Assembly (NCBI GenBank): GCA_947626755.1
Contig: CANQTP010000008.1
Coordinates: 14,786 to 78,785, forward strand
Direction of reading: 5' to 3'
DNA length: 64,000 nt
Origin: an uncultured Clostridia bacterium
Lineage (GTDB): Bacteria; Bacillota; Clostridia; Oscillospirales; Ruminococcaceae
Shown: positions 12,620 to 43,066 of the stretch, piece after piece
Position numbering within the stretch: the stretch's first letter is position 1
Layout of the letters: each line of letters opens with the position of its first letter
Program-made: the position numbers and the translations under genes
Notes under the pieces: generated by a model
Databases searched by the model: none
The model's input: the letters and a program-made list of their open reading frames with translations, nothing else
What the model was told of the DNA's origin: nothing

Positions 12620-13534
12620 ATGAATACAAATATTTTGCTTGAAAGCGGAACCAACGAACTTGAACTGCTTGAATTTCAGGTGGGCGACAATAACTTTGGC
12701 ATAAATATCTCCAAAGTTGTTGAGATCATGATAAATCAGGACGTTACGCCTGTTCCTAACGCCCCGGAAGAAGTGGAGGGCGTGTTTATCCCACGTGATA
12801 AACTGATCTCCGTTATTGATCTGCATAAGGTCATTCATGTTCCCCATGAAAACTCCGGAAAGGAAATATTCATTATCTGCGAATTCAACCGCATGAACGT
12901 TGCTTTCCACGTTACAAAAGTAAAAGGCATACAGAGAATATCGTGGTCTGAGATCTCCGATCCCCCCGCTGTTGCAAACGGCACGGGAAGCGATGCTGTA
13001 GGTCTTTCCACAGGCGTTGCAAAGATAGACGACAGGATAATCATTATCCTCGACTTTGAAAAGATCGTTGCCGCTCTCAACAAGAACGTAGGTCTGGATC
13101 TGGAAGGCATCGAAAACGCTCTCCGTCCCAACGAAGCAGTGGGCAACAAGAGAATTGTCGTTGCGGACGATTCCAAATTCCTCAATAAGATGATAACCGA
13201 GTCCCTCAATAACATAGGTTTCCATAATATAGTATCCTTCGGAAACGGCGAGGACGCCTGGAATTACATATCCCAGTTCAAGGACAGCACAGACGTTACT
13301 TCTCATATCGCCTGCGTTATCAGCGATATTGAAATGCCTAAGATGGACGGCCACAGGCTCACAAAGCTTATCAAGGACGATAATACCCTTAAAAAGATAC
13401 CTGTACTGCTGTTCTCCTCCCTCATAAACGAACAGATGATAGCCAAGGGAAAAACTGTCGGCGCGGACGGTCAGTTCTCCAAGCCACAGATAACCGAACT
13501 CATAAACTACCTTACCGCTCTGCTTTCTCATTGA
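12620..13534 (+). CDS. cheV: chemotaxis protein CheV (CheW domain + receiver domain)
   Basis: N-terminal CheW-like region (ELLEFQVGDNNFGINISKV), C-terminal receiver (VVADDS..ISDIEMPKMDG..SS). GGAGGAGG SD. Confidence 0.85.
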   Translation: MNTNILLESGTNELELLEFQVGDNNFGINISKVVEIMINQDVTPVPNAPEEVEGVFIPRDKLISVIDLHKVIHVPHENSGKEIFIICEFNRMNVAFHVTKVKGIQRISWSEISDPPAVANGTGSDAVGLSTGVAKIDDRIIIILDFEKIVAALNKNVGLDLEGIENALRPNEAVGNKRIVVADDSKFLNKMITESLNNIGFHNIVSFGNGEDAWNYISQFKDSTDVTSHIACVISDIEMPKMDGHRLTKLIKDDNTLKKIPVLLFSSLINEQMIAKGKTVGADGQFSKPQITELINYLTALLSH

Positions 13535-13553
13535 CATAAAAAGGTAATATAAA

Positions 13554-13710
13554 ATAGCATTAAATGATAAACAAAAGACAGGACGAGCCCTGATCTTTCA
13601 GGCAGGATCTTATGTTTTATCACTTATGCAAGCGATGATCGGGAGACCGTGTTCAAAGAAGCTGTTGTATGCTTCAGAAGCAATACGGTCTCAAGGTATT
13701 TACAGGCAAT
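13554..13710 (+). pseudogene. decayed 5' fragment of a fourth TIR-domain paralog
   Basis: Aligns by eye to 13744-13935 of the next gene. ATG has become ATA, an internal stretch is replaced or shortened, a 1-nt deletion sits in the GTTTTTATCA run, and the copy is truncated after the GLRVF-equivalent codons. Confidence 0.7.
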
Positions 13711-13745
13711 GTATTTCAGAATAAACATATCAGGAGTAGGATAGT

Positions 13746-15410
13746 ATGGCATTAGATGATAAACAAAAAATGGAAAGAGCCGAGTATCTTGGAAATAATC
13801 TCAAAGTAACGGAGTGTTCCCGCGGAGAACATTACGTTTTTATCAGTTACGCAAGCGATGACTGGGAGACCGTGTTCAAAAAGGCTGTCGTACCGCTTCA
13901 GGAGCAGTACGGTCTGCGGGTGTTTGCGGATAAGGCTTTTGACAAGGTAAATGACAAGTGGATCGTTCCAATGCTGAGAAATGTGCGCGGCTCAGATCTG
14001 ATGATCGCTTTTGTAAGCCAGAAATACATTGAAAGCTATGCTTGCTTTCTGGAGATCCTCACTGCCGTAAACAGCAGGAAGCAGATCATTTTTGTTGCGC
14101 TTGAAAATGATCTGCGTATCGGCGCAAGCGATGAACAGCCTGCCATAGAACGGGGCGCAAAGATCGAACTTCTTAACCAAGGCGCAAATATCACTACTAT
14201 CACAAACAATACTTCAAATGACATTCTGCGCGCTATGAAATCCGCTTTTACAAGCATTTCAACATTTATCGAGCAGGATTCGCTGTCAAAATACGATATT
14301 TCGGACGCGTTTATCAACTTTTTCCGCGATGCTGCCATAAATAAGAAAACAATAAACGATCTTATTGCGCTCCAAAGCACTATAAGATCAGTAAGCAAGA
14401 ATGTTTTTGCATTTGATGCACAACCTGCCGATATACCTGCTGCACCGCAGGATACATATTTTACCCTGCCCGATGCACCCTCTCCGACTGCACCCGCACC
14501 GACTGCACCCGCACCGACTGCGCCTGCTCCGACCGCGCCGCAGGAAACGTCTGTTCCCCTGACCGATGCACCCGCTCCGAATGAACAGCCTGCCGAATAC
14601 ACGCAGGCAAACAGATCGTACAATGACGGCGGAATACAGCCTGCCGCAGTTTATCCCGCAGCAGTACAAAACAATGAAAAACTCAAAAGAATAGCTATTA
14701 TATCGGTACTGAGCTTTCTGGTCGTTCTGTTGGCGATATTATTAATAGTATCATTATCCAAAAAGCCGGCAGATGATATACCCGCATCGGCAGAAGTATC
14801 CGAAACAACAGCGGCAGAAATAACAGAAGCTGCCACAGAGGAAGCAAAGCCTGAAAATGGTTCTTACACCGACGAGGAAGGGAACTATTATGAAGGCGAT
14901 CTGTTAAACGGCATACCCAACGGTCAGGGTACTATGACATATACAAACGGCGATGTATATACAGGCGAATGGAAAGACGGTTTAAAAAGCGGTCAGGGGA
15001 CTATAACATATGCAAGCGGTACTGTATATGAAGGCGAGTGGAAAGATGACAAAAGAAACGGTCAGGGTACTTACACATGGGCAAGCGGCAATATATACGT
15101 CGGCGAATTTAAAGATAATGTCAGAAACGGTCATGGTACTGTAACATGGACAGACGGTACTGTATATGAAGGCGAATGGAAAGATGATAAAGCAAACGGT
15201 CAGGGTACTATGACATATGCAGAGGGCGATGTATATGAGGGCGAATGGAAAGATGACAATAAAAACGGTCAGGGTATTTATACATTTGCAAACGGCGATA
15301 TATATGAAGGCGAATGGAAAGATGACAGTAAAAACGGTCATGGTACTTACATATTTGCAAATGGTGAAGTCTGGTCGGGACAGTGGGAAAACGGCGAATT
15401 TATAGGCTGA
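13746..15410 (+). CDS. TIR-domain protein, single TM helix, C-terminal MORN repeats (paralog 1)
   Basis: YVFISYASDDWE, GLRVFADKAF and DLMIAFVSQKYIESYACFLEIL give a TIR_2-like pattern with Glu103. TM at about aa 316-336. Eight YxGEWKDxxxNGxG MORN units. AGGAG SD. Confidence 0.8.
   Translation: MALDDKQKMERAEYLGNNLKVTECSRGEHYVFISYASDDWETVFKKAVVPLQEQYGLRVFADKAFDKVNDKWIVPMLRNVRGSDLMIAFVSQKYIESYACFLEILTAVNSRKQIIFVALENDLRIGASDEQPAIERGAKIELLNQGANITTITNNTSNDILRAMKSAFTSISTFIEQDSLSKYDISDAFINFFRDAAINKKTINDLIALQSTIRSVSKNVFAFDAQPADIPAAPQDTYFTLPDAPSPTAPAPTAPAPTAPAPTAPQETSVPLTDAPAPNEQPAEYTQANRSYNDGGIQPAAVYPAAVQNNEKLKRIAIISVLSFLVVLLAILLIVSLSKKPADDIPASAEVSETTAAEITEAATEEAKPENGSYTDEEGNYYEGDLLNGIPNGQGTMTYTNGDVYTGEWKDGLKSGQGTITYASGTVYEGEWKDDKRNGQGTYTWASGNIYVGEFKDNVRNGHGTVTWTDGTVYEGEWKDDKANGQGTMTYAEGDVYEGEWKDDNKNGQGIYTFANGDIYEGEWKDDSKNGHGTYIFANGEVWSGQWENGEFIG
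14487..14540 (+). repeat. 15-bp coding tandem repeat (TAPAP linker), about 3.6 copies
   Basis: ACTGCACCCGCACCG appears twice, followed by diverged copies. Encodes PTAPAPTAPAPTAPAPTAP. Confidence 0.85.
14883..15395 (+). repeat. 69-bp periodic coding repeats (MORN units)
   Basis: Recurrent TATGAAGGCGAATGGAAAGATGA...AACGGTCAGGGTAC blocks with a 23-codon period. Confidence 0.8.
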
Positions 15411-15508
15411 TCCCCCATATTAAAGCAAACGGCATTAAAAATCACATAATTTGTTAATTTACAAAATATCTGCTTTATTGCAGTTAAAAATTATTAGGAG
15501 TAACAAAA

Positions 15509-17143
15509 ATGGCATTAACTAATGCTCAGAAGATCGAACGAGCAAACTATCTTGAAAAAAATCTTACCGTAACGGAATGTTCTTCCGGAGAACCGTATGT
15601 ATTCATCAGTTACGCAAGCGATAACTGGGAAACTGTATTCAAGGGCGGCGTTGTGCCCCTTCAGAAACAATACGGTCTGAGAGTGTTTGCGGATAAGGCT
15701 TTTGACAAGGTAAACGATAAATGGATCGTTCCTATGCTGAGAAATATACGCGGCGCGGATCTGATGATAGCTTTCGTCAGTCAGAGCTACATAGAAAGCT
15801 ATGCTTGCTTTCTGGAACTTCTTACTGCTATAAACAGCAAGAAACAGATAATATTCGTTTCTCTTGACAATGATCTGCACGTATGCACAAATAATGAAAT
15901 GCCCGCCATCGAACGCGGGGTAAAAAACGAGCTTCTTAACCAAGGCGCAAATATAATTACAAGCACAAACAATACTTCAAATGACATCATGCGTGCCATA
16001 AAGTTCGCCTTTACAAGCATTTCAACATTTATCGAGCAGGATTCACTTTCAAAATACGATATTTCGGACGCATTTATCAATTTCTTCGATGATGCTTCCA
16101 TTAACAGGAAAACTATCGACGATCTGAATGCTCTTCAAAGCACGATCCGTTCCATCAGTGAGGGCGTTTTCAGAAACGCTGATGAGGAAATTGTCGAGCC
16201 TGCCGCAGTTGAGGAACTCCCGCAGGAAAATGATATTTCCGACATAACAGAAAATAATTCAGGCACTGCATTTTCGGGAGAAATTGCTGCCGACAGCGGA
16301 AAGACAAAGAAAATAATTATCATATCCGCGGCGGCTCTTGCGGTTATCATACTTGCAATATTACTGATAGTATCGTTTTCCGGAGGATCATCGGAAGATG
16401 ACGAACTTTCCGCATCTGTGAGCGAGATCACTTCATCGGCGGCAATATCATCATTTACGCTGCCTGTGTCCGAAACAACAACGGAGATAAAAAAAGAAAA
16501 AGGCTCTTTTACCAATGAAAACGGAGATCTCTACGAAGGCGAAATGCTGGACGGGATCCCAAACGGTCAGGGTACTATGAAATACGCAGACGGCACAGTT
16601 TATGAAGGAAACTGGATCGACGGCAAAAGAGAAGGTACGGGTTCTTACGGCGGAGCAGATCCGAGCGGTGTGGAGTTCATCTATTCGGGCGACTGGGAAA
16701 ATGACGAGAGAAACGGTCAGGGCACCGAAACATGGGTCAACGGCGAGTCCTACACGGGAAACTGGGCGGACGGCATGAAAAACGGCAAAGGAACTACAAC
16801 ATATGCAAACGGTGACGTTTACGAAGGTGAGTACAAGAACGGCGTAATAAACGGTCAGGGTACTTACATCTGGGCAAACGGCGACATATACGAAGGCGAG
16901 TTCAGAGACAATATCAAAAACGGTCACGGCACTATGACATTTGCCGACGGAGATGCTTTTGAAGGCGAATTCATAAACGGCGACATTTACCAAGGCACCT
17001 ATACAGGAAAAGACACCGACGGGTTAAGCTTTGTTTACGAAGGCGAATTCAGCAGCGGTCTCCCCAACGGTCAGGGCACCTGCACATGGGAGGACGGCAA
17101 TGTAAAATCAGGAACATGGAAAAACGGCGTTTTTATAAGCTGA
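15509..17143 (+). CDS. TIR-domain protein, single TM helix, C-terminal MORN repeats (paralog 2)
   Basis: N-terminal 220 aa collinear with paralog 1 (YVFISYASDNWE..ESYACFLELL). TM at about aa 268-290, flanked by KTKK on the N side and SSEDDE on the C side. MORN units are less regular. Confidence 0.8.
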   Translation: MALTNAQKIERANYLEKNLTVTECSSGEPYVFISYASDNWETVFKGGVVPLQKQYGLRVFADKAFDKVNDKWIVPMLRNIRGADLMIAFVSQSYIESYACFLELLTAINSKKQIIFVSLDNDLHVCTNNEMPAIERGVKNELLNQGANIITSTNNTSNDIMRAIKFAFTSISTFIEQDSLSKYDISDAFINFFDDASINRKTIDDLNALQSTIRSISEGVFRNADEEIVEPAAVEELPQENDISDITENNSGTAFSGEIAADSGKTKKIIIISAAALAVIILAILLIVSFSGGSSEDDELSASVSEITSSAAISSFTLPVSETTTEIKKEKGSFTNENGDLYEGEMLDGIPNGQGTMKYADGTVYEGNWIDGKREGTGSYGGADPSGVEFIYSGDWENDERNGQGTETWVNGESYTGNWADGMKNGKGTTTYANGDVYEGEYKNGVINGQGTYIWANGDIYEGEFRDNIKNGHGTMTFADGDAFEGEFINGDIYQGTYTGKDTDGLSFVYEGEFSSGLPNGQGTCTWEDGNVKSGTWKNGVFIS

Positions 17144-17182
17144 TAAAATAACTCACAGAACACAAAACGGAGGTAATTTAAA

Positions 17183-18472
17183 ATGGCACTGAGCGAAGAG
17201 CAAAAGAAAGAACGATCAGAATATCTTAATGAACACCTGAAAATTACAAAATTTGATGACGAAAAACAATATGTGTTTATAAGCTATGCAAGCGACAACT
17301 GGGAGGTCGTGTTCAAGAATGTAGTAGTACCGCTTCAGGAGCAATACGGTCTGAGAGTATATGCAGATAAGGCTTTCGATCATGAGAATAACAAGTGGAC
17401 CACATCTATGCTCAGAAATATACTCTACTCGGATCTGATGATAGCATTTTTCAGTCAGAAATACATAGAAAGCTATGCTTGCTTTCTGGAACTTCTCACG
17501 GCTGTAAATAACAAAAAACAGATAGTTTTTGTTTTTATCGACAACGATCTGCGTAATGGAGATACCGCCGATAAGCCTGTCATTGAATCGAACGTCAAGA
17601 AAGAGATACACAAACAAGGCAACGTCCTTACCATAAAAACAGATAATACTTCAAATGATATTATGCGGGCTATGGTATCCGCTTACACAAATATTTCTTC
17701 GCTTTTACAGCAGGATTCGCTGTCAAAATATGATATTTCCGATGCTTTTATAAACTTTTTACGTGATGCATCTATCAACCAAAAAAATATATATGACATG
17801 AATGCGCTGAAAAATACTATTATGTCTGTAAGTGAAAGTGTTTTTGCGCCTGTTGAGCATTATCTGTCGGAGCCGGAAGATAATGTTCAGGATATAAAGG
17901 AAATCGCATCTGATCCGATGCCTGAAAACACCAATAATGAGCAGGAGCCTGCAATAAATGATAAAATTATCGGAAAATGCCCCTTCTGCGGAAAAAATGT
18001 ATATGAAGAAAACGAAAAATATTTCTCCTGTGAGGACGAAAAAGAAGGCTGTAAATTTAAAATATGGAAACACAGCGACTATTACCTAACCGATATTACC
18101 CGTGATCTTGCAAGAACGCTCCTTGAAGGAAAACCTGTCACGCGTGTTGAGAAAAAAAATAATAGTGAATTTGAATATGTTCTTGACAAGGAAAACGGCA
18201 AATTGATAAAAGTGTTTTATGGAAAATGTCACGTATGCGGGAAAAATGTATATGAACACGAAAAAGATTTCTCCTGTAATGGCAAAAAAGACGGCTGTGT
18301 TAAAATATGGAAACACAACAATGATTACCGAACCGATATTACCCGTGATCTTGCAAGGACACTTCTTGAAGGAAAAACGATCAAGCTGGAAAAAATAAAT
18401 GATGGCAAAATTTATGAAACTGAAATTATACTTGATCCAACAACAGGCAGCCTTAAACAAATTTCAAAGTAA
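17183..18472 (+). CDS. TIR-domain protein with two C-terminal C4 zinc-ribbon repeats of topoisomerase C-terminal-repeat type (paralog 3)
   Basis: Same N-terminal module. No TM helix. Two copies of CxxCGKNVYE..FSC..GC.KIWKH...TDITRDLARTLLEGK. GGAGG SD. Confidence 0.75.
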   Translation: MALSEEQKKERSEYLNEHLKITKFDDEKQYVFISYASDNWEVVFKNVVVPLQEQYGLRVYADKAFDHENNKWTTSMLRNILYSDLMIAFFSQKYIESYACFLELLTAVNNKKQIVFVFIDNDLRNGDTADKPVIESNVKKEIHKQGNVLTIKTDNTSNDIMRAMVSAYTNISSLLQQDSLSKYDISDAFINFLRDASINQKNIYDMNALKNTIMSVSESVFAPVEHYLSEPEDNVQDIKEIASDPMPENTNNEQEPAINDKIIGKCPFCGKNVYEENEKYFSCEDEKEGCKFKIWKHSDYYLTDITRDLARTLLEGKPVTRVEKKNNSEFEYVLDKENGKLIKVFYGKCHVCGKNVYEHEKDFSCNGKKDGCVKIWKHNNDYRTDITRDLARTLLEGKTIKLEKINDGKIYETEIILDPTTGSLKQISK

Positions 18473-18493
18473 TTGAATTTTTGCAATATGCTT

Positions 18494-18527
18494 GTCCCCC
18501 GATGAATTTCGGGGGACATTTTTATTT
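18494..18527 (+). terminator. rho-independent terminator closing the TIR array
   Basis: GTCCCCC, GATGAATTTC loop, GGGGGAC, then ATTTTTATTT. Confidence 0.75.
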
Positions 18528-18637
18528 ATTCCGCTGATTTTTTGCTTTGTCCCATAATCGACAGTTTTTTATGCCCGTACAATGTATAATTAATGACGTG
18601 GACAACATAAAAAATATTTTCGGAACGGCGGTATCAA

Positions 18638-19468
18638 ATGTACATATATGTGGATATTCTCATTATTACAAGCATTTATGCTAATTTCTTCCTGCTGAAA
18701 ACCACCGCGCGGCTGATACATTCACCCTTAAAGAACGGTAAATGCGTGCTTGCGGCTGTGGTGGGAAGTCTGTTTTCGCTGATAATCCTGCTTCCGCGGC
18801 TGAACACTCTGCTTCTGCTTATAATACGGATACTTTCGGCGGCGGTAATGATAATTACGGCTTTCAGCGGAATGTCCCCGAAAGAACTTTACAGAACAGG
18901 ACTTATATTCTTCTTCGTGAGCTTTATCTTTGCGGGGATAGAATACGGAATTTCCATACTTTCGGGCGGGCAGAACATGGTATGGCACAATTCTGTGCTG
19001 TATGTAAATATTTCCCTGCTGACGCTGATAGTTTCTACAATAATATCATATGCGGCGATCTCATTTTTCAGGTATTTTATCGACGGCGGAAATTTTTCCG
19101 ACACAAAGTATCATGTTACAGTCACCCGAAACGGCAGAACGGCTTCCTTTACCGCCATAGGAGACACCGGAAACGATCTTACAGATGTTTTCACAGGCAG
19201 ACCTGTGATCGTATGCGGTAAAAACAAGCTTTCGGGGATATTCGAGCCGCAGGAGCTGGAAGATGTGCTTTCCGCCGAAAAGAGTATCAGCGGTTGGAGA
19301 CTGATACCGTTTTCAACAATTTCTTCAGGAGGAATGCTGCCTGTTTTCAAGCCCTCCGCAGTAATTATCAAAGATACGGAAAACAGCGTCCGCAGGACAG
19401 CCGACGTTTATATAGGCATAGTTGACCGCGAAATGGAATATGCCGTTCTTAACCCAAAGCTCCTGTGA
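18638..19468 (+). CDS. spoIIGA: sigma-E processing peptidase SpoIIGA
   Basis: Polytopic membrane N-terminal half, GDTGNDLTD aspartic-protease motif. Immediately upstream of sigE. Confidence 0.88.
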
Positions 19469-21815: not shown

Positions 21816-24146
21816 TCAGAAAACTTTCTTTTTAAGAATTACTGCGGAAACTGCAAGTGCCGCAAACGTTACAACTATTGCAGCGGGAGCAGCGGAAGTT
21901 TCGCTTTCTTCGTAAACGCCTGCGCCCGAGGAAACGTCCTCGCCGTAAGCTTCTTCGTCAAATACGATAACGTAATCGGAAGCGTGCGTCATTGTGAAGT
22001 CTGCAATGCCGTCCTCTACCTTGGAGCTGCCCACAAAATCAAATTTGCCGTCATGGAACCAGTAGAGATTTGCAAATTGTCCGTTGTACTTCTTGTTTAT
22101 GGGAATATTTACAACTGCTTTGAAGCCGAAATCTCCGTTATGTCTGATGGAGAACTGGAAAGTATCCTTGTCCTTTGCAATAGTTTCAAGCTGCTTTGCG
22201 GAAGCTTTCTTTGTCTTGAGTGTTACGCCCAGATCAACTTTCTGTGCATCTTTAACATCAAGACCGTTTACTTCCCATGTAACGCCGTTTGAAAGTTCAA
22301 ACTCAACGTCAACATCTTTTCCTGCAATATCGGCAAGAGTATCCTTGGAAACGCTTGTGCTTTCTTTCAGGGAAACAGTTTTCTTTTCGCTTTCGGAAGT
22401 GCCTGCGGCAGCAGTATCAGCGGAATTATTGCCGATAACAACAGCCGGCATACCTACGCTGTGAGGACTTGCGGCAGGAGCAGAAGGAACAGCGGGAGAA
22501 ATATCATCTCCATAGCCAAGTGCAAGAGTTACCGTGTCTCCCTCTTTCATAGCCGCAAGAGCTTCGTTATTTGAAGAATCTGCAAGACTTACTATCATAT
22601 AACTTATATTATCGATAACATCACTGTTTGCGACCTGTTTATTCAAAGCTTCATCGTCAAGATCATAGTAATAATAACCTTTTGTTTTCAACGACCGAAT
22701 ACGCGCATAGTCATCATTATCATAAATATCTTTGCCATTTACAATAATTCTTAATCCAACAGCAAAGTTGTCACTGCCAAGACCTAACGTATCGGTCAAA
22801 TACTGTTCTGTCTTTAATTCTATTCCTTTATACAGTGTTTTCAATTCACTGAATGTGGTCATGCCGTTAATGATACCCGGAAGATCGACCCTCTCCTCAT
22901 ATCCGACCGTGCCTGACGTTATTTTTTCTCCGTCATCTGTTGTATACGTTCTGCTATTCGGAGAATATGTCAGTGCATAATTGCCTTCGGGAAGATTTAT
23001 TGTATAATTGCTTCTGTTGCTCGTATCAACATTTACCCAAAGCAAAGAACCTAAAGGCAATTTAGCAATTTCCGGATAGACAACAGAAGTTTTTGCCATA
23101 ATTGCAGCATTGCACATAATATCGGTTACTACTGCATCTGTCGGTATATCGGTATCATTCAGATCACAGTAATATTCTTTACCCGAAAACAATGGAACCG
23201 TATCTCCGATAGAAACTGAATAAAATTTGCCATCTGACGTGTAATTAACAAAGAAATTGAATGTAAAGTCTTCAGCGGCAAAATTTCCGGAGTTGAACTT
23301 GTATGCAGGCAGCTGAACACCGATCTGATCAAATTTTTCAAGTATTTCACCATAGGTAGTTTTACCATATTCAATAAAACTATATTTGCTTATAAATTCT
23401 ACCTCATCTCTTTTAGCAAAAAATTTACATGAGTCCGACTCTCCGTCGCCGCCTTCTATGAGGTTCAGGCAAAATCCGTTGGAATTTGTATAAAGATCAG
23501 GAAGGAAATAAGGAGCATATTTAATATTATTCGGATCATTTACAGTAAGTTTAGATCCCACAGGCAGAGCCGCAACGTGAGGATTATCCGAAGATTTTTG
23601 TGTACAAATAACATTGCAGTACAATCCTTCAAATTCCGCTCCTTCGGGGAAACCCGGATCCTTCACGGATACAGAATAGCTGCTGCCGTCAAACAGCGGG
23701 AATACATCTCCGATCTGCAAAGATATAGGTTCATCTTTATAAATGCAATTCACAAAAAAATTGCAGCTAAATGTTCCCGCTCCGAAACCTTCAGAATCGC
23801 ATATATACTTTGGAAGATCTCCTTTGATAGTTGAATATACTTTTTTAAAATCTGCGAATGTTCCAAAATTTTCATCAAGTCCTATATCAATTATCTTTTT
23901 GAAATATTTAACATCTTCTCCTCCGTCAATGGTCTTATCAGCTTTAAGTTCCATGTCAAAACTGCCTGAAAAAAGATCAGACAAATTATAGGTCAGACTG
24001 CCGGCTTCTACCGGTACTTCCTCACCTGTTGTTATGTTTTCAGTTTCAGCAGTTACTGCATCTTCTGCACTTACAGGCATGATCGCCGCTAACGATAATG
24101 TCATTACCGCTGCTGTTATTCCCGCAAGCAATTTTTTTAATTTCAT
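21816..24146 (-). CDS. secreted, C-terminally membrane-anchored surface protein with three divergent internal domain repeats
   Basis: Signal peptide MKLKKLLAGITAAVMTLSLAAIMPVSA, C-terminal TM AAIVVTFAALAVSAVILKKKVF. GAAGGA SD before ATG 24146. Confidence 0.6.
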   Translation of the reverse strand: MKLKKLLAGITAAVMTLSLAAIMPVSAEDAVTAETENITTGEEVPVEAGSLTYNLSDLFSGSFDMELKADKTIDGGEDVKYFKKIIDIGLDENFGTFADFKKVYSTIKGDLPKYICDSEGFGAGTFSCNFFVNCIYKDEPISLQIGDVFPLFDGSSYSVSVKDPGFPEGAEFEGLYCNVICTQKSSDNPHVAALPVGSKLTVNDPNNIKYAPYFLPDLYTNSNGFCLNLIEGGDGESDSCKFFAKRDEVEFISKYSFIEYGKTTYGEILEKFDQIGVQLPAYKFNSGNFAAEDFTFNFFVNYTSDGKFYSVSIGDTVPLFSGKEYYCDLNDTDIPTDAVVTDIMCNAAIMAKTSVVYPEIAKLPLGSLLWVNVDTSNRSNYTINLPEGNYALTYSPNSRTYTTDDGEKITSGTVGYEERVDLPGIINGMTTFSELKTLYKGIELKTEQYLTDTLGLGSDNFAVGLRIIVNGKDIYDNDDYARIRSLKTKGYYYYDLDDEALNKQVANSDVIDNISYMIVSLADSSNNEALAAMKEGDTVTLALGYGDDISPAVPSAPAASPHSVGMPAVVIGNNSADTAAAGTSESEKKTVSLKESTSVSKDTLADIAGKDVDVEFELSNGVTWEVNGLDVKDAQKVDLGVTLKTKKASAKQLETIAKDKDTFQFSIRHNGDFGFKAVVNIPINKKYNGQFANLYWFHDGKFDFVGSSKVEDGIADFTMTHASDYVIVFDEEAYGEDVSSGAGVYEESETSAAPAAIVVTFAALAVSAVILKKKVF

Positions 24147-24215
24147 ACAACAATCCTTCTTTCTGATATTTTTTGGAGTTTCCCCCAAATGTCATATATA
24201 TTTCTATTATACAGC

Positions 24216-24360: not shown

Positions 24361-25803
24361 TTACCTGTATTCCTTGCGCAGAAGCGCGTTTTTCTTGTCC
24401 CAAAGCTGCTGAGACAGGTCTACATAGTATTTGTGGGGATTTTCAAAACGCTTTACTTCGTCCCAGATAGTGTCAAGCTGCGCGGAACAGTATTCGCGTA
24501 TATCGTCCGCCGACGGACGTTCATACACGCATCTTCCCTCGTCAAAGATCTGTTCCATGAGCCGCACCGCACTGAAATGTTCCAGAGTCTTGCGCTTGTA
24601 GGTATATTCGGGATCAAATATCTCATATGGTTTTGTATCGTCTATAAGTTCTCCCCGACAGGTCAGAACGTCCGCAATTGCCTTTCCCGTAGAAGTGTCG
24701 AACAGTCTCCACACTTCCTTGAAATCGGGATTTGTTATCTTGGAAGTATTTTCCGAAAGTTTTATTTTCGGAACTATCTCCCCGTTCTTTTCAATAGCCG
24801 CTAACTTGTATACGCCGCCAAAAACAGGTTCGGAGCGGGAAGTTATCATTCTTTCGCCGACGCCGAAGCTGTCGATCTCCGCGCCCTGAACGAGAATATC
24901 CCTTATTATATATTCGTCCAGAGAGTTGGAAGCAACTATTTTTACATCGGGGAAACCCTCATCATCAAGCATCTGACGGGCTCGCTTGGAAAGATATGTT
25001 ATATCTCCGCTGTCAATGCGTATTCCCGCAGGTTTCTCTCCCCGCTCCCGCATTTCCTTGAAAACTGTTATAGCGTTGGGAAGTCCGGATTTTAAAACGT
25101 TGTAGGTATCCACAAGCAGAGTCGTGCCTTTTGGATAGCATTTTGCATAGGCTCGGAAAGCTTCAAGCTCGCTGTCAAACATCTGTATCCATGAATGTGC
25201 CATAGTTCCCAGTGCGGGGATACCGTCGTCACGGTCGGAAACAGTGCAGGCAGTTCCGCAGCAGCCTGCAATATATGCCGCTCTTGCGCCGTAGATAGCA
25301 CCGTCACAGCCCTGTGCCCGGCGGGAACCGAATTCCATAACAGGTCTGCCTGCGGCGGCGCGGACAATGCGGTTTGCCTTTGTGGCGATAAGGCTCTGAT
25401 GATTTATGCAGATCAGCACCATTGTTTCCAAAAACTGCGCCTGAATTGCAGGACCGCGGACTGTAACAATGGGTTCTCCGGGGAATATAGGCGTTCCCTC
25501 GGGAACTGCCCACACATCGCAGGAGAATCTGAAATTCCGCAGATAGTTCAGGAATTCTTCGCTGAAAATGCCCTTGCTCCGCAGAAATTCTATATCTTCA
25601 TCATCAAAGTGCAGATCCTCCATATATTCTATAAGCTGCTCCAGACCGCACATTATGGCAAATCCGCCGCCATCGGGAACATTCCTGAAAAACATATCAA
25701 AGTACGAAATTATATCTCCCATGCCGTTCTCAAAATATCCGTTAGCCATGGTAAGCTCGTAAAAATCCGTAAGAAGCGTAAGGTTGCGGTTATCGTTCTT
25801 CAT
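24361..25803 (-). CDS. pncB: nicotinate phosphoribosyltransferase
   Basis: LLTDFYELTMANGYF N-terminus, GTMAHSWIQ, SNSLDE. 480 aa. Confidence 0.9.
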   Translation of the reverse strand: MKNDNRNLTLLTDFYELTMANGYFENGMGDIISYFDMFFRNVPDGGGFAIMCGLEQLIEYMEDLHFDDEDIEFLRSKGIFSEEFLNYLRNFRFSCDVWAVPEGTPIFPGEPIVTVRGPAIQAQFLETMVLICINHQSLIATKANRIVRAAAGRPVMEFGSRRAQGCDGAIYGARAAYIAGCCGTACTVSDRDDGIPALGTMAHSWIQMFDSELEAFRAYAKCYPKGTTLLVDTYNVLKSGLPNAITVFKEMRERGEKPAGIRIDSGDITYLSKRARQMLDDEGFPDVKIVASNSLDEYIIRDILVQGAEIDSFGVGERMITSRSEPVFGGVYKLAAIEKNGEIVPKIKLSENTSKITNPDFKEVWRLFDTSTGKAIADVLTCRGELIDDTKPYEIFDPEYTYKRKTLEHFSAVRLMEQIFDEGRCVYERPSADDIREYCSAQLDTIWDEVKRFENPHKYYVDLSQQLWDKKNALLRKEYR

Positions 25804-26474
25804 TACAGAACACCCCCTGTTATTTCCGAGACAAATGTTATGCCGCTGTCTTTCATAATTTTATATGCGGCAATGTTCATAAAATCCGCGTCATGGGAAG
25901 GCGCGTCGTAAGTTTCCGCGCAGTCAATGGGAATTACAATGCTGCACTGTTTATTCTGCTGTGTGAAAAATGTTTTCAGTGACAGGCAGAATTGCAGCAC
26001 GCAGATGTCCGTACAATCGCCTGTTACAATGAAAGTATCCTTTCCCGAATCGAGAAGATGTTTCCTGTAACTTTCCTCGTGGAAGCCGTTGGTGGAATTT
26101 TTCTTTATCAGCAGATACCCGCCTTTGTTTTTAATTTCGTCAACAATTTCCGACTCGGGGGTATTTTCGATACAGTGAGGCGGAAACGAGGCAAATTCCG
26201 CACAGTCGGCGGCGTGGCAGTCGGCAAAGGCAGTAACGGGAATGCCCCGCGCGGAGCATTTCTCCATAAGCGAAACGATAGGTGGGATAATGTCCTCCAC
26301 AAGCGGCGAAGCCATTGCGCCCTGACGAACGAAGCCGTTCACAACGTCCACAATGACAAGCTCGGTCTTTTTGGGATCAAATTCGGAAATATCCGCAGCC
26401 GCCGCGGAGGATAGTTCTTCCGCAAGACAGCGGACGGTGTTATAACAGTTTTCGCAGGTTCTTATTTTTCTCAT
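25803..26474 (-). CDS. isochorismatase-family cysteine hydrolase, probable nicotinamidase
   Basis: VIVDVVNGF, FIVTGDCTDICVLQ catalytic Cys context. Overlaps the pncB start (operon). Confidence 0.6.
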   Translation of the reverse strand: MRKIRTCENCYNTVRCLAEELSSAAAADISEFDPKKTELVIVDVVNGFVRQGAMASPLVEDIIPPIVSLMEKCSARGIPVTAFADCHAADCAEFASFPPHCIENTPESEIVDEIKNKGGYLLIKKNSTNGFHEESYRKHLLDSGKDTFIVTGDCTDICVLQFCLSLKTFFTQQNKQCSIVIPIDCAETYDAPSHDADFMNIAAYKIMKDSGITFVSEITGGVL

Positions 26475-39022: not shown

Positions 39023-40300
39023 ATGATAAATCATCAAATCGTTTTTGGTGATAGCCGAAAAATGAGCTTAATACCTGATAAATCGGTTCAGCTTATAGTT
39101 ACCTCGCCGCCTTATTGGCAGCTTAAAGATTATGGAACGGACGATCAGATAGGATTTAATGACAGCTATGAAGATTACATAAACAATCTTAATTTAGTGT
39201 GGCAAGAATGCTACCGCGTACTTTCCGACGGCTGCCGTCTGTGTATAAACATAGGCGATCAGTTTGCCAGATCCGTATACTACGGCAGATATAAAGTTAT
39301 TCCTATAAGAACAGAAATAATACGTTTTTGTGAAACTTTAGGAATGGACTATATGGGTGCAATAATCTGGCAAAAAGCTACTACAATGAACACATCAGGC
39401 GGCGGAGCGGTTATGGGCAGTTTCCCTTATCCACGAAACGGCATACTAAAAATGGATTATGAATTTATACTTCTGTTCAAAAAACTTGGAAAAGCTCCTA
39501 AACCGACTATTGAGCAGAAAAAGGCTTCCGAATTATCCAAAGAAGAATGGAATCAATATTTTTCATCACATTGGAATTTTAACGGCGTAAAGCAATACGG
39601 TCATATTGCCATGTTTCCGGAAGAATTGCCAAAGCGTTTGATAAAAATGTTTTCGTTTGTAGGAGAAACAGTTCTTGACCCGTTTGCCGGAAGCGGAACA
39701 ACTTCACTTGCTGCAAAACATTTAACAAGAAACTCGATCGGATATGAAATAAACAGTGATTTTAAACCCATTATTCAGGAAAAGCTAATGGGTGAACAAA
39801 TAGATATGTTTGATCCGAACAATAGGGTATGTTTTGCCGAGGATAATGCTCCTAAAGATTTTTCTTTTGATGTACTTCCGTATATTTTTCATGATCCTCA
39901 TAAATTGGATAAAAAGATAGATGTAAAAAAACTTCAATTTGGTTCTAAAATTGATAATACGGAGACTGTCAGAGAAGATCTGTTGAAAGTAAAAAATGTA
40001 ATTTCACCTGAAAAAATAGAACTCAGTAACGGATTGATCATAAAATTGATCGGTATAAAATCAAAACCCGGGTTTGAAACTGAAGCTGTAAATTTTTTAA
40101 AGCAGAAATTTCAAAAAAGAAAAATTTACCTGAAATATGATTCCATAAAGCATGATGAAAATAATACTTTACTTTGCTATGTTTATCTTGATAATAAAAC
40201 ATTTGTTAATAATCATTTGATCCGTACAGGATATGTGGACGTTGACAAAACCGCCGATTATATGTATAAACCTAAATTCCTTGCTTCGCTTCCTCAGTAA
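39023..40300 (+). CDS. beta-class N4-cytosine/N6-adenine DNA methyltransferase with degenerate SNase-like C-terminal domain
   Basis: Motif IV TSPPYW near the N-terminus and motif I VLDPFAGSGTT later (beta order). C-terminus ..LLCYVYLDNKTFVNNHLIRTGYVDVD resembles the thermonuclease fold end. Confidence 0.85.
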   Translation: MINHQIVFGDSRKMSLIPDKSVQLIVTSPPYWQLKDYGTDDQIGFNDSYEDYINNLNLVWQECYRVLSDGCRLCINIGDQFARSVYYGRYKVIPIRTEIIRFCETLGMDYMGAIIWQKATTMNTSGGGAVMGSFPYPRNGILKMDYEFILLFKKLGKAPKPTIEQKKASELSKEEWNQYFSSHWNFNGVKQYGHIAMFPEELPKRLIKMFSFVGETVLDPFAGSGTTSLAAKHLTRNSIGYEINSDFKPIIQEKLMGEQIDMFDPNNRVCFAEDNAPKDFSFDVLPYIFHDPHKLDKKIDVKKLQFGSKIDNTETVREDLLKVKNVISPEKIELSNGLIIKLIGIKSKPGFETEAVNFLKQKFQKRKIYLKYDSIKHDENNTLLCYVYLDNKTFVNNHLIRTGYVDVDKTADYMYKPKFLASLPQ

Positions 40301-40301
40301 T

Positions 40302-40339
40302 AAAAATGCGGCTATCCATTTAAGAGCAGCCGCATTTTT
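40302..40339. terminator. bidirectional terminator between the MTase and REase genes
   Basis: AAAAATGCGGCT..AGCCGCATTTTT. Confidence 0.75.
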
Positions 40340-40929
40340 CATTCTTCAACTTCAATTTTTAAACTTGTTTTCGTTTTTGTATAATAAATCATTTTTACAT
40401 CAATTGTTTCTGATAGACGTCCCATTGTTTTGTATGTATCGGGCTTTATCGAATACGGAACACCGCCTACATAGCCGTCAATTCCAATAGATTCTTCATA
40501 GGGAATGGCAAGACGATAAACTGTTTTTTGACGTTCTGCAAGGGAAGCTAAAATTGCTTTCTGAACATACAAACCGTTAAATGTTTTTGTAATAACAAGG
40601 TCTTCTACCCAATGTTTTACCATTTCACGGTCAATAAGTTTTATAGCTTCTTTAAGATTCTGAACCTGTCCATAAATCTTGTCGGCTGCTTTTTCAAGAG
40701 CATCAGGATATTTTTCTTCGTACCAATCCTGCCAATTCTCAATGGTGATTTCTTTTCCGGAAGCCATAAACTCCGGAAACAGCTCGGACATCTGACCGAC
40801 AACAACAGGGCGAGTTCCCTGTGCATTCTGATTTGCCCAGTTAATCAATTGGGAAGTATATTTCGGAAAGCTGAAAGATTCGCTTTCGTTGAGTTCTTTG
40901 ATATATTCATTTTTTATTGTATATGTCAT
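40339..40929 (-). CDS. putative type II restriction endonuclease
   Basis: Convergent with the MTase and downstream of the C-protein gene. Possible PD-(D/E)xK remnant IGIDGYVGGVPYSIKP. ATG 40929 with GGAAG SD. Family not recognised with certainty. Confidence 0.55.
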   Translation of the reverse strand: MTYTIKNEYIKELNESESFSFPKYTSQLINWANQNAQGTRPVVVGQMSELFPEFMASGKEITIENWQDWYEEKYPDALEKAADKIYGQVQNLKEAIKLIDREMVKHWVEDLVITKTFNGLYVQKAILASLAERQKTVYRLAIPYEESIGIDGYVGGVPYSIKPDTYKTMGRLSETIDVKMIYYTKTKTSLKIEVEE

Positions 40930-41001
40930 TTTCTTTTCTTCCAATCATTGTAATTTTTGTTTGCCATTTCTTGTGTTATTCTTATGCCTGCAACGCGTTT
41001 G

Positions 41002-41211
41002 TCACGATTTTCGTTTAAACTCATTCATTTCCTCATCAGTTTCGGCAATACAAAAACCTTTATTGCCACAAGATATAACTGGCAAGCCATATTCTTCTGC
41101 AGTTTTCCATATTTCTTTGCGACTTACAGCTTGTATATCTTCCATTGGGAAACCCATGAGTTTACTTATTTGTTTAGATGTTATTGCATTTTCCTTTCCA
41201 CAATGTTGCAA
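41002..41211 (-). CDS. small hypothetical protein between the C-protein and REase genes
   Basis: 69-aa ORF with TTG start and no clear SD. Coding status uncertain. Confidence 0.3.
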   Translation of the reverse strand: MQHCGKENAITSKQISKLMGFPMEDIQAVSRKEIWKTAEEYGLPVISCGNKGFCIAETDEEMNEFKRKS

Positions 41212-41222
41212 CAGAATTTTTT

Positions 41223-41450
41223 TTAATCTCTTCGCTCATCATAATCCTCCAAAAACAATTTATATGTTTCGATTTTTAGTGCATCAGCAATTTTTTGAAT
41301 ATTTTCAAGAGATATGCTTCTCCGAAAACATTCAATATCACTAATATATGTTCGATGTAATCCACATTTTTCGGCAAATTTCTCTTGGGATAGACCAAGC
41401 CGAGTTCTATGCTTTTTGACGTTTGTTCCAAACACTTTGATAATATCCAA
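41223..41450 (-). CDS. XRE-family HTH controller (C) protein of the R-M system
   Basis: LGLSQEKFAEKCGLHRTYISDIECFRRSISLENIQKIA helix-turn-helix. TTG start with AGGTGG SD. First gene of the REase operon. Confidence 0.75.
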   Translation of the reverse strand: MDIIKVFGTNVKKHRTRLGLSQEKFAEKCGLHRTYISDIECFRRSISLENIQKIADALKIETYKLFLEDYDERRD

Positions 41451-41495
41451 AATAATCCACCTGCTTTTGATATATAAGTTAATTATACACGATTT

Positions 41496-41510
41496 TAGAT
41501 TGCAAATCTA
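41496..41510. promoter_or_regulatory. candidate C-box operator palindrome
   Basis: TAGATTgcaAATCTA, perfect 6-3-6. It lies 8 nt upstream of a - strand TATAAT (41487-41482), so it overlaps the -35 position. Confidence 0.45.
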
Positions 41511-41762
41511 CATACAATAAGTGTCATATTGCTTTGTTTTTTGATATGTTAATGTTTACTTATGTATGTACTACCAATATGTTGTACATAGGCAGAAAGA
41601 AAGTTTTGGAAAATTTATACATTTTGTACAGTGACTACAATTTGAAGAAGTCGGGGGAGGAATAATAAAAATCGCTAAAATGAATTGACATATTGTAAAA
41701 AATTTGATATAATAATAAAAAAAGTTCATTTTCAAGGAGGTAGAACGACATGAACAAACTAA

Positions 41763-42095: not shown

Positions 42096-42186
42096 ATAGC
42101 CAAAATTTTACAGATAGCTTAAATAATGCAGATGCCACAAGCCAAATCACTTACACAAAATTGTTTGAGTCACGCTTTTAGTAAGC

Positions 42187-42247
42187 GAGTGGGAATAATT
42201 GAATTCTCCCTGCAAACTGCGGTGATACGCGGGTTGCGGGGAGAATT
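42187..42247 (+). repeat. direct repeat, right copy
   Basis: Identical to 38887-38947 except TT to AA at 42202-42203. Confidence 0.9.
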
Positions 42248-42294
42248 AAAAAATTTGATGATTTTTAAAAGTGATAAAATAAGAAGGCATTTTT

Positions 42295-43041: not shown

Positions 43042-43066
43042 TATTACATAGTTTGCGGGGATTTTG
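43026..43066 (+). terminator. rho-independent terminator overlapping the macro gene stop
   Basis: CCCCGCAAACT..AGTTTGCGGGG then ATTTT. Confidence 0.7.

Follow-up and report, generated by a model that had tools for sequence, protein, structure and literature searches.

Can a bacterial receptor hold a TIR domain inside the cell and a repeat-built sensor outside it? To our knowledge, the bacterial TIR systems characterized to date detect infection from within the cell. The question was raised by two neighboring genes in a 64-kb stretch of DNA from an uncultured Clostridia bacterium (here termed the window), for which a sequence-only reading had proposed cytoplasmic TIR domains joined through one membrane helix to extracellular MORN repeats. 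The genes of paralog 1 (P1) and paralog 2 (P2) and the segments of their products are as follows.

13746..15410, + strand: P1 gene, an open reading frame (ORF) of 554 aa with the order TIR head, linker, transmembrane (TM) helix, MORN array
13746..14411, + strand: P1 TIR module, predicted cytoplasmic (aa 1-222; AlphaFold2 pLDDT 89.7, pTM 0.89)
13836-14111, + strand: P1 TIR_2 Pfam core (aa 31-122)
14052-14054, + strand: codon of the P1 candidate catalytic Glu103, by alignment with the plant TIR Glu
14412..14690, + strand: P1 Pro/Ala-rich linker between TIR module and TM helix, predicted cytoplasmic
14691..14759, + strand: P1 predicted TM helix (aa 316-338, sequence IAIISVLSFLVVLLAILLIVSL; 19-residue Kyte-Doolittle value 3.30)
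14760..14876, + strand: P1 juxtamembrane linker, predicted to be on the outer side (aa 339-377; acidic and Ser/Thr/Ala/Glu-rich by sequence)
14877..15407, + strand: P1 MORN array, predicted to be extracellular (aa 378-554; seven 23-aa units, Pfam stretches)
15509..17143, + strand: P2 gene, an ORF of 544 aa with the architecture of P1
15509..16174, + strand: P2 TIR module, predicted cytoplasmic (aa 1-222; pLDDT about 90)
15815-15817, + strand: codon of the P2 candidate catalytic Glu103, by alignment with the plant TIR Glu
16313..16381, + strand: P2 predicted TM helix (aa 269-291; 19-residue Kyte-Doolittle value 3.35; helix 265-291 in the model)
16496..17140, + strand: P2 MORN array, predicted to be extracellular (aa 330-544; pLDDT >90)

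Pfam searches, with cutoffs of 28 bits for TIR_2 (PF13676) and 22.5 bits for MORN (PF02493), matched P1 to TIR_2 over aa 31-122 (46.1 bits, E 1e-12 to 8e-12) and to MORN over 7 units (176 bits, E 1e-53). The corresponding values for P2 were 39.2 bits (E 1.2e-9, aa 31-122) and 156 bits (E 3.8e-47, 7 units). The TIR domains, the single membrane helix, and the MORN arrays of both proteins are confirmed as real, and a chance origin is ruled out. Of the 7 or 8 MORN units counted previously, Pfam detects seven in each protein, and P2 has extra degenerate hairpins. P1 and P2 are 80% identical in their heads and 54% identical in their arrays. The full-length AlphaFold2 model of P2 (mean pLDDT, 81.7) consists of a confident globular head (residues 1-222), a disordered stretch (231-266) that is the counterpart of the P1 cytoplasmic linker, the helix (265-291), a second disordered stretch (292-324) matching the P1 outer juxtamembrane linker, and a beta-hairpin array (330-544).

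P1 and P2 each contain a single hydrophobic helix, with a Kyte-Doolittle maximum of 3.3. Since no other segment of either protein exceeds a value of 1.2, both lack an N-terminal signal peptide. The proposed orientation had been based on the flanks of the P2 helix, which do read KTKK before and SSEDDEL after it; in the wider context (SGKTKK/SGGSSEDDEL), three K/R residues precede the helix, and no K/R but four D/E residues follow it. In P1 (EKLKR/SKKPADD), the N flank contains 3 K/R residues and 1 D/E residue, and the C flank contains 2 K/R and 3 to 4 D/E residues. This bias extends well beyond P2: summed over 29 relatives, the N flanks contain 126 K+R and 31 D+E residues and the C flanks 51 and 71, and K/R residues are more numerous on the N side in 28 of these 29 proteins. 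By the positive-inside rule, the excess of K/R in the N flank (126 versus 51) thus places the TIR domain inside and the MORN array outside, which supports the prediction that P1 and P2 are single-pass type II (N-in, C-out) membrane proteins.

Foldseek matched the P2 array to the MORN1 crystal structures 6t6q and 6t4d (Toxoplasma and Plasmodium) with an E value of 2e-21, a TM-score of 0.86-0.89, and 38-39% identity. Eukaryotic MORN proteins (MORN1 of Toxoplasma, Plasmodium, and Trypanosoma; junctophilins) thus share with P1 and P2 an array of 23-residue YxGxW...GxG beta-hairpins. However, they are cytosolic scaffolds, whereas the arrays described here are predicted to lie outside a bacterial membrane, are fused to TIR, and, unlike the eukaryotic ones, are strongly acidic (net charge of about -26 to -29). 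The predicted ectodomain of P1 contains no Cys, 42 D+E, and 16 K+R residues. MORN is not inherently an outside module, since soluble TIR-MORN proteins exist, namely, the relatives P0069, P0072, and P0075, in which a matching head is fused directly to MORN and the helix is absent, and others that are unrelated. In such relatives MORN and TIR are both intracellular, and the array could therefore be an oligomerization scaffold and not a ligand sensor. Elsewhere, MORN is fused to the extracytoplasmic domains PG_binding_1, Cu_amine_oxidN1, and LpoB/CsgG.

The top 26 PDB matches of the P1 head in Foldseek were all TIR domains, including RPS4 (the best, at 1.8e-4), L6, SPARTA, Bacillus cereus TIR, and AbTir. 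The similarity is modest, with E values reaching only 1e-4 and TM-scores of 0.45-0.6, and a profile search with the head retrieved no solved TIR; the model nevertheless confirms that the heads of P1 and P2 adopt a divergent TIR fold. The plant TIR NADases (RPS4, RPP1, L6, and RPPT) are the closest solved structures (E 1.8e-4 to 2e-3 over about 200 aligned columns) and also give the best sequence alignments, in which E103 (context YACFLE[IL]L) aligns with the Glu of WC-x-x-EL in RPP1 (WCLDEL), RPS4 (WCVREL), and L6 (WCLMEL). They differ in their low identity (12-16%), in the NB-ARC/LRR context that is absent here, and in lacking the helical region that follows the core (aa 136-216) and is specific to the P1/P2 family. 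E103 is invariant in two homolog alignments, of 25 and 14 sequences, and the surrounding motif, S-x-x-Y-x-x-S-x-x-C-x-x-E, is invariant throughout the family. By this alignment, the head is probably of the NAD-cleaving type and may have NADase activity.

The family of this TIR head was found solely in gut Lachnospiraceae and Oscillospiraceae, in which phage-host biology is poorly charted, and it was absent from the plasmids and IMG/VR viral contigs searched. Its heads are 70-77% identical across genera, with the tails that follow the helix being exchanged. Apart from MORN, relatives with matching head and helix carry tails typical of extracytoplasmic proteins, namely, fn3 plus transglutaminase (P0063), LRR (P0068), and Sel1/TPR (others). 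The family thus offers ready contrasts, with one head placed on MORN, Sel1, LRR, or fn3 ectodomains or on soluble tails. Within the species, variation is concentrated in the MORN array. Between conspecific alleles with flanking genes that are 98-100% identical, the P1 head differed by 1 substitution in 222 codons, whereas the array differed by 19 substitutions in 154 codons and an indel of one 23-aa unit (dN/dS, 0.09 for the head versus 0.64 for the array).

P1 and P2 are followed by a third paralog, and the array is flanked by a gene remnant and by candidate expression signals.

13531..13560, + strand: sigma-70-like promoter candidate 5' of the three-gene array (TTGACA-18-TAGCAT, 10/12 positions)
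13554..13705, + strand: degraded remnant (5' end, frames disrupted) of a fourth TIR paralog (blastn/tblastn)
17183..18472, + strand: paralog 3 (P3) gene, 429 aa (TIR_2 46.5 bits, E 6.5e-12, Pfam)
18493..18518, + strand: intrinsic-terminator-like hairpin 3' of P3 (10-bp stem, 7 G-C pairs, T-run)

P3 combines a TIR head like those of P1 and P2 with a C terminus of two tandem CxxC...C zinc-ribbon-like modules; this tail had no significant match in Pfam or PDB. A MORN domain (Pfam) and a hydrophobic segment (hydropathy scan) are absent, and P3 is predicted to be fully cytoplasmic. It may represent an intracellular counterpart with a different sensor, its TIR head being placed on a soluble zinc-ribbon tail. 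The P3 allele is 50% diverged between strains that are otherwise 98-100% identical. In blastn, two parts of the remnant matched P1: one of 78 nt is 86% identical to P1 nt 93-170, and one of 36 nt is 81% identical to nt 1-36. In tblastn, positions 13601-13678 of the remnant matched aa 27-52 (ITYASDDRETVFKEAVV...). The hairpin is the sole + strand terminator candidate within positions 13400-18750, and this, together with the short gaps between P1 and P2 (98 bp) and between P2 and P3 (39 bp), suggests that the three genes form an operon. The promoter candidate is the best site of the region by consensus match alone.

The locus lies among core genes, with mutS, miaB-like, dnaD/dnaC-like, and cheV genes on one side and spoIIGA, sigE, and sigG on the other; cheV and spoIIGA are the direct neighbors of the array. 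The spoIIGA adjacency is kept in a sibling strain. It is lineage specific, since spoIIGA, sigE, and cheV were never near the TIR gene in 32 related genome loci. Genes of NAD salvage (NAPRTase and isochorismatase family), which are ordinary housekeeping genes, are found 5-8 kb downstream of the array. Searches of PADLOC-DB v2 gave no significant match for P1 to P3, with sub-threshold values of 1.3e-3 for P1 (PDC-S66) and 4.7e-5 for P3 (AbiP) and none for P2. Defense models were matched by only a few of 100 genes in the vicinity of related TIR loci, and one related cassette adjoins a CRISPR-Cas locus. An immune role of P1 and P2 is plausible.

In related genomes, the TIR gene has a characteristic neighbor. 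A gene for a RyR-domain membrane protein adjoins it in 21 of the 32 loci, usually in the same orientation and 13-141 bp upstream, and a DHH protein gene is near it in 10; any other neighbor family was seen in at most 5 loci. A reverse search from three RyR proteins recovered an intact TIR-TM-MORN gene directly downstream in two of three contig sets (4 of 6 loci). The candidate effector in these relatives is a 2-TM protein ending in the RyR domain, of a family abundant in Lachnospiraceae (335 clusters); we found no literature describing such a protein as an effector, and neither the RyR nor the DHH neighbors matched PADLOC. In the 64-kb window, a RyR-family gene was absent by tblastn and by the family HMM with filters off, and the DHH partner was likewise absent. 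RyR-domain proteins of phages bind or cleave 2'cADPR and 3'cADPR (PMC13232231; 10.64898/2026.06.04.730250), with a Kd of 43 nM (10.64898/2026.06.04.730250). Following these two 2026 preprints, the RyR neighbor is a candidate for the role of native receptor for cADPR-type signals in the cell.

A comparison with known systems shows partial likeness to several of them. (i) Like ThsB of Thoeris, P1 to P3 have a small N-terminal TIR with a conserved Glu, and Thoeris loci often hold multiple ThsB genes, much as tandem TIR paralogs with differing sensor tails occur here. In addition, the gene adjacent in relatives ends in a RyR domain, a binder of 2'cADPR/3'cADPR. However, ThsB proteins are soluble, whereas the TIR of P1 and P2 is predicted to be membrane anchored and to bear an ectodomain; the RyR partner is missing from the window, and no ThsA (SIR2-SLOG or Macro-TM) lies beside the array, the sole Macro protein of the window being soluble and 25 kb away. 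With no ThsA neighbor and no PADLOC Thoeris match, the assignment of P1 to P3 to Thoeris was rejected. (ii) Toll-like and IL-1 receptors likewise cross the membrane once and combine an ectodomain built of repeats with a cytoplasmic TIR, and the TIR-TM-LRR relative P0068 makes the earlier analogy to Toll-like receptors with reversed N-to-C order literal. Toll-like receptors, however, are type I with a C-terminal TIR, whereas P1 and P2 are predicted to be type II, with an N-terminal TIR, no signal peptide, and MORN in place of LRR or Ig; P1 and P2 were therefore rejected as true Toll-like receptors. In Toll-like receptors, the TIR domain is an adaptor scaffold for MyD88 and TRIF, both missing from bacteria, whereas the head described here retains the Glu that typifies enzymatic TIRs. 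The resemblance is thus best regarded as one of logic and not of shared ancestry of the whole protein. If the topology is correct, P1 and P2 would be the closest prokaryotic analog of the Toll-like-receptor layout. (iii) Zorya and Kiwa are envelope-level phage sensors. They resemble P1 and P2 in concept, in that detection of infection or of an envelope event takes place at the membrane, from which a signal travels inward, but they are unrelated proteins with no TIR chemistry and no kinship in sequence or structure. Full-text literature searches found no bacterial TIR-plus-MORN or TIR-TM-ectodomain system, in agreement with the initial impression that none had been described.

The data as a whole are best explained, with slightly better than even confidence, by a family of type II TIR-MORN receptors in which ectodomain clustering would trigger NAD+ chemistry of the TIR head, with a RyR relay being favored. 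The computations show the domains and their fold, the helix and its charge bias, the conserved Glu, the exchangeable tails, the linkage to RyR, and the concentration of variation in the ectodomain, whereas ligand binding, oligomerization, NADase or signal chemistry, the effector, and any role in phage defense are inferred. The cytoplasmic head with its aligned Glu would be tethered by a disordered linker and one helix to a variable ectodomain, and the acidic seven-unit array would be located within the cell-wall zone, the host being presumably monoderm. There it may bind a ligand of the surface or envelope or be clustered by one. Clustering would bring the TIR heads together; enzymatic TIRs require self-association for active-site formation. 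The assembled heads would then cleave NAD+. A Thoeris-like relay, in which the RyR protein reads a cADPR-type signal, is favored over simple NAD+ depletion, because the TIR gene of most relatives is in an apparent operon with the RyR gene, often with a DHH phosphoesterase gene. For the window array, the partner might be encoded elsewhere, or NAD+ consumption alone might suffice. A more specific version is possible and put forward tentatively: an undescribed outside-in system of TIR-TM-ectodomain protein, 2-TM RyR protein, and DHH protein, in which interchangeable MORN, Sel1, LRR, or fn3 ectodomains would detect an extracellular event (phage adsorption or envelope attack), the TIR would make a cADPR-type messenger, and the RyR effector would read it, the window array being a variant of it that either has no partner or acts in trans. 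Prokaryotes would then have their own equivalent of Toll-like receptors and, at the same time, of signaling from cADPR to ryanodine receptors. An outward-facing TIR sensor would mean that bacteria can couple NAD-derived signaling to surface events.

NAD+ depletion is the mode of action of many bacterial TIR effectors, and P1 and P2 might be stand-alone abortive-infection NADases, with a triggered ectodomain causing the membrane TIR to deplete NAD+ with neither messenger nor partner. The window would fit, with no RyR, SIR2/SLOG, or Macro-TM effector beside the array and with the downstream NAD salvage genes (though housekeeping), as would the absence of the RyR gene from about a quarter of related loci. 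We consider this unlikely, since the strong, rearrangement-tolerant RyR and DHH linkage in most relatives is left unexplained without a diffusible product. That linkage could equally reflect a housekeeping second-messenger circuit rather than immunity, and the division into synthesis, receptor, and phosphoesterase roles does resemble a homeostatic one. A physiological receptor of this kind would respond to the state of the cell wall, to a cue from the host or gut, or to contact between cells, the TIR making a messenger that RyR reads and DHH degrades. It agrees with the core-chromosome setting outside a defense island, the absence from plasmids and viral contigs, and the abundance of the RyR family in Lachnospiraceae, but is rather unlikely given the traits typical of conflict genes: tandem paralogs, a decayed fourth copy, swapped ectodomains, intraspecies repeat-number polymorphism, the diverged P3 allele, and the cassette next to CRISPR-Cas.

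Two further alternatives concern the protein itself. Many TIR domains are adaptors, and eukaryotic MORN arrays are mainly dimerization and protein-binding scaffolds, so that the match to 6t6q and 6t4d would suit a nonenzymatic TIR scaffold with MORN as a cell-wall or self-association anchor; the spoIIGA-sigE-sigG adjacency, kept at spoIIGA in the sibling strain, might hint at a role in sporulation. The invariant plant-aligned Glu and its motif, and the absence of spoIIGA, sigE, and cheV from the 32 related loci, make this very improbable. Finally, the hydrophobic segment might not span the membrane, or its orientation might be reversed, leaving MORN in the cytoplasm as in the soluble TIR-MORN proteins. 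We give this hardly any credence: the segment comprises 22-23 uncharged residues and is helical in the model, the charge bias is nearly universal, export of an N-terminal domain of 270-315 residues without a signal peptide is unlikely, and both the tails that follow the helix in relatives and the extracytoplasmic partners of MORN elsewhere argue for an outside location.

Both the linker and the array of P1 are repetitive at the DNA level (TRF). The array contains a 69-bp tandem repeat (6.3 copies, 76% identity), and the linker contains a 15-bp tandem repeat at 14470-14533 that encodes 4.3 copies of PTAPA, of which a conspecific allele has one unit fewer.

The TIR array of the window comprises three paralogous genes, P1, P2, and P3, in tandem, with intergenic gaps of 98 and 39 bp.

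Features of the TIR array and its immediate flanks (positions in the window)
13531-13560, promoter-like site upstream of P1
13554-13705, between cheV and P1, decayed and frame-broken remnant of the 5' end of a further (fourth) TIR paralog, DNA 81 to 86% identical to the P1 start
13746-15410, plus strand, P1, 554 aa
14470-14533, tandem DNA repeat of 15 bp (PTAPA, 4.3 copies) in the P1 linker
14919-15354, tandem DNA repeat of 69 bp, equal to one MORN unit (6.3 copies, 76% identity), in the P1 ectodomain
15509-17143, plus strand, P2, 544 aa
17183-18472, plus strand, P3, 429 aa, TIR module and two zinc-ribbon-like repeats, no transmembrane helix
18493-18518, plus strand, terminator-like hairpin 3' of P3, the only candidate on this strand

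Given the short gaps, the one promoter-like site, and the sole plus-strand hairpin after P3, the three genes likely form an operon. They are flanked by core Clostridia genes, namely, mutS, ylbF, a miaB-like gene, genes for DnaD-domain and DnaC/DnaI-like proteins, and cheV upstream and spoIIGA, sigE, and sigG downstream. A search for the array as an insertion between cheV and spoIIGA, in which the CheV protein was compared with metagenome contigs, returned closest relatives that were at most 59% identical and had no common synteny. Located 5 to 8 kb downstream of the array, on the minus strand at 24361-26474, are genes for a nicotinate phosphoribosyltransferase and a neighboring isochorismatase-family protein, possibly a nicotinamidase; these NAD salvage genes are conserved in a sibling strain and are probably housekeeping. 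A region of low GC content (0.32 to 0.39) at 39023-46671 encodes an N6/N4 DNA methylase fused to an SNase-like domain, an MjaI-family restriction endonuclease, an SSB, and a Macro-domain protein of 248 aa that is soluble (42295-43041). This region is likely a small islet, either mobile or for defense, with no relation to the TIR array.

The three paralogs share an N-terminal module of 222 residues, termed the head here, which is 80% identical between P1 and P2 and 63 to 65% identical between P3 and either of them. Pfam places a TIR_2 domain at aa 31-122 of all three proteins, over the curated cutoff, and every defining feature of TIR_2 and MORN family membership that was tested was present. 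A sequence profile search of the PDB with the head returned no solved TIR, so that a fold search was required. Modeled alone, the P1 head had a pLDDT of 89.7 and a pTM of 0.89, and its nearest PDB folds were TIR domains, namely, RPS4 (1.8e-4), followed by RPPT, L6, RPP1, the SPARTA TIR, the B. cereus TIR, and AbTir. Since this fold similarity is modest and sequence profiles retrieved no solved TIR, the head is, as judged from its model, a divergent TIR. In pairwise alignments, the candidate catalytic residue E103 (YACFLE[IL]L) falls on the Glu of the WC-x-x-EL motif in RPP1, RPS4, and L6, which is the catalytic residue in TIR NADases; E103 is unchanged throughout the aligned homologues.

The sequence-only reading had described P1 and P2 as a cytoplasmic TIR domain, a single transmembrane helix, and predicted extracellular MORN repeats. 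The TIR domain, the helix, and the repeats are confirmed, with seven MORN units in each protein according to Pfam (E 1e-53 for P1 and 4e-47 for P2) and none in P3. The sole strongly hydrophobic stretch covers aa 316-338 in P1 and aa 269-291 in P2, with a Kyte-Doolittle 19-residue mean of 3.3, compared to 1.2 for the next best segment; by the same measure, P3 has no such stretch. Because this single helix follows an N-terminal domain of 270 to 315 residues without a signal peptide, an N-in, C-out orientation is predicted. The helix flanks from which a cytoplasmic TIR had been proposed agree with the sequence, and a positive-inside test on 29 family members, using 15 residues on either side of the helix, revealed 126 K/R and 31 D/E residues before it and 51 K/R and 71 D/E residues after it; K/R residues were more abundant on the N-terminal side in 28 of the 29 proteins. 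Independent support for MORN repeats outside comes from relatives in which the same head and helix precede typical extracytoplasmic tails. The single helix, the charge bias, and the tails of relatives thus support the proposed topology as far as prediction goes. A host-directed TIR effector of the TcpB/TirS type was rejected, since the TIR domain is predicted to be cytoplasmic and membrane tethered.

In the full-length AlphaFold2 model of P2 (mean pLDDT of 81.7), the head is globular and confidently predicted; one disordered linker separates it from a helix at 265-291, and another separates this helix from a beta-hairpin array at 330-544, for which the pLDDT is above 90. This array superposes with the MORN1 crystal structures 6t6q and 6t4d (E 2e-21, TM-score of 0.86 to 0.89). 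The P1 and P2 ectodomains are strongly acidic (42 to 44 D+E and 15 to 16 K+R) and contain 0 or 1 Cys. Elsewhere, MORN arrays are also joined to PG_binding_1, Cu_amine_oxidN1, and LpoB/CsgG domains, and unrelated soluble TIR-MORN proteins of ~350 aa exist as well. A MORN array does not by itself imply a location outside the cell; in P1 and P2, it is the helix that would put the array there.

A word-indexed search with the head retrieved 50 proteins, mostly 65 to 80% identical, from Oscillospiraceae and Lachnospiraceae MAGs. When 1.84 billion representatives were searched exhaustively with a profile, 63, 305, and 1242 clusters were obtained at E <= 1e-30, 1e-10, and 1e-3, respectively. A scan of species-representative genomes identified 32 loci, in Parablautia muri, P. 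intestinalis, Eisenbergiella, Roseburia, and numerous MAGs from the gut of mice, rabbits, and humans. TIR-1TM-MORN, with between 4 and 18 repeats, is the layout of most of their proteins; another three are TIR-1TM-Sel1/TPR, and in two the TIR is combined with a multi-TM tail. Further tails are found among relatives from the representative search (P00xx).

Tails that follow the TIR head
P0063, 1178 aa: single TM helix, transglutaminase-like domain, and two fn3 domains
P0068, 666 aa: TIR 31-122, TM 282-305, LRR 447-623, the literal reversed Toll-like receptor layout
L016, L017, L026, P0057, P0058, P0062: helix and Sel1/TPR
P0069, P0072, P0075: soluble MORN, without helix
P0059: soluble TPR
P0025: soluble FHA
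P3, P0039: soluble zinc ribbons

The pattern is that of one conserved enzymatic-type head joined to many exchangeable tails for sensing or targeting, which lie outside the membrane in some proteins and inside in others. Topoisomerase C-terminal repeats were suspected in the zinc-ribbon tail of P3, but neither Pfam nor the PDB gave a significant match, and the tail is left unclassified. The proposed topology of P1 and P2 is supported; as to function, we infer only that they are TIR signaling or NADase proteins whose exchangeable sensor is anchored in the membrane and faces outward. No family members were matched in IMG/VR viral contigs or in plasmids. The sole match in a phage collection, at MT836912.1:3189-3812, is weak: this 8.3-kb record from human feces, which is unannotated and titled "Bacteriophage sp.," encodes a relative with 34% identity over the whole head (aa 25-222). 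With IMG/VR and plasmids negative and this single match, a mobile-element origin was rejected as the main explanation.

P1 and P2 are not Toll-like receptors. The domain logic is the same, and P0068 is literally TIR-TM-LRR, but P1 and P2 have their domains in reverse order, lack a signal peptide, and combine a MORN ectodomain with an enzymatic-type TIR. Nor is the array a recognized Thoeris system, since it has no ThsA and no model match. Full-text literature searches returned no account of bacterial TIR-MORN or TIR-TM-ectodomain systems; apparent "MORN" matches were to the word "morning." Database entries with this architecture do exist, with generic names like "TIR domain-containing protein."

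Beyond this architecture, a cassette linked to a RyR domain provides an additional lead. A gene for a RyR-domain protein of ~460 aa (e.g., L002:8606-9988, with equivalents among loci L003-L032 and on contigs L117-L120) adjoins the TIR gene in 21 of the 32 related loci, or in 21 of 28 when the count is restricted to loci for which over 1.5 kb of sequence is available upstream. It is usually located 13 to 141 bp upstream on the same strand, and some loci are rearranged yet retain the adjacency. At its N terminus, the protein carries two hydrophobic segments, and it ends in a RyR domain (Pfam, 5.6e-10; RyR Repeat12 structures in the PDB, 3e-13); Pfam at relaxed thresholds detected nothing besides this domain in the central region. 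Ten of the related loci contain a DHH/DHHA1 phosphoesterase of ~550 aa, and no other neighbor family was common to more than five loci. The Parablautia muri cassette (L008), for example, consists of RyR, DHH, and TIR-TM-MORN genes. In the reverse test, three RyR proteins used as the start led to three contig sets with six loci, and an intact TIR-TM-MORN gene was directly downstream in two of the three sets (4 of 6 loci). One of these two sets has the DHH gene upstream, and the other adjoins a CRISPR-Cas locus of type I-C; in the third, all that is left of the TIR gene is a 28-residue relic, which neighbors a serine recombinase. On contig L119, the cassette (L119:1-2147) is ~3.8 kb from type I-C Cas5d, Cas1, and Cas2, the only clear defense neighbor seen. 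In the 64-kb window, tblastn and family HMM searches with filters off found no RyR-family gene, and the DHH gene is likewise missing from the window.

The RyR linkage is the best clue to mechanism. In two 2026 preprints, phage RyR-domain proteins are reported to bind 3'cADPR, 2'cADPR, and cADPR (10.64898/2026.06.04.730250, PMC13232231), with a Kd of 43 nM (10.64898/2026.06.04.730250), and to cleave cADPR-type signals (PMC13232231); the terms searched in both texts gave no cellular membrane RyR protein adjoining a TIR gene. The linkage suggests a relay in which the TIR domain would make a cADPR-type signal, the RyR-domain membrane protein would read it, and the DHH enzyme may remove it. Along with the RyR linkage, the presence of several TIR paralogs in one array suggests that this relay is Thoeris-like.

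Such a relay could serve phage defense or, as a real rival, a physiological outside-in signaling circuit. PADLOC gave no significant match for P1-P3 or the RyR and DHH neighbors, and on 100 genes near related TIR loci it reported just 6 families, with ~9 matches at E <= 1e-10, which lends no support to a defense-island context. The absence of the family from IMG/VR viral contigs and from plasmids and the embedding of the window locus in core genes also speak against an immune role, and it is these observations taken together that give the physiological circuit its weight.

Variation within the species bears on the same question. Contigs of the same species, whose flanking proteins are 98 to 100% identical, have the same array. 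In one strain, P1 is short of exactly one 23-residue MORN unit; in another, it is shorter by one PTAPA unit in the linker and by one MORN unit. The differences among conspecific contigs (L033, L123) thus amount to exactly one unit of each tandem repeat. Repeat collapse in short-read assembly could contribute to these unit indels. In the latter strain, P1 has 19 substitutions per 154 aligned MORN codons, compared to 1 per 222 in the head, and the dN/dS ratio is 0.64 for MORN (dN 0.070, dS 0.109) and 0.09 for the head. The raised MORN dS suggests that the 69-bp repeats recombine or undergo gene conversion, and the ratio is therefore not clean evidence of positive selection. The same strain carries a P3 allele that is just ~50% identical (window 17183-18472 versus L123:10001-11185), with the first ~70 residues nearly alike and the remainder replaced. 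Genes in conflict typically show expansion, decay, and variation focused on the tail, but these features are not proof of conflict. Near the array, strong divergence between the two strains is seen in just one further gene, at 21816-24188 (minus strand), which encodes a 790-aa protein with an N-terminal signal-like segment, a C-terminal hydrophobic anchor, and no Pfam match; this protein is 59% identical to the 744-aa L123 version over the C-terminal ~300 aa.
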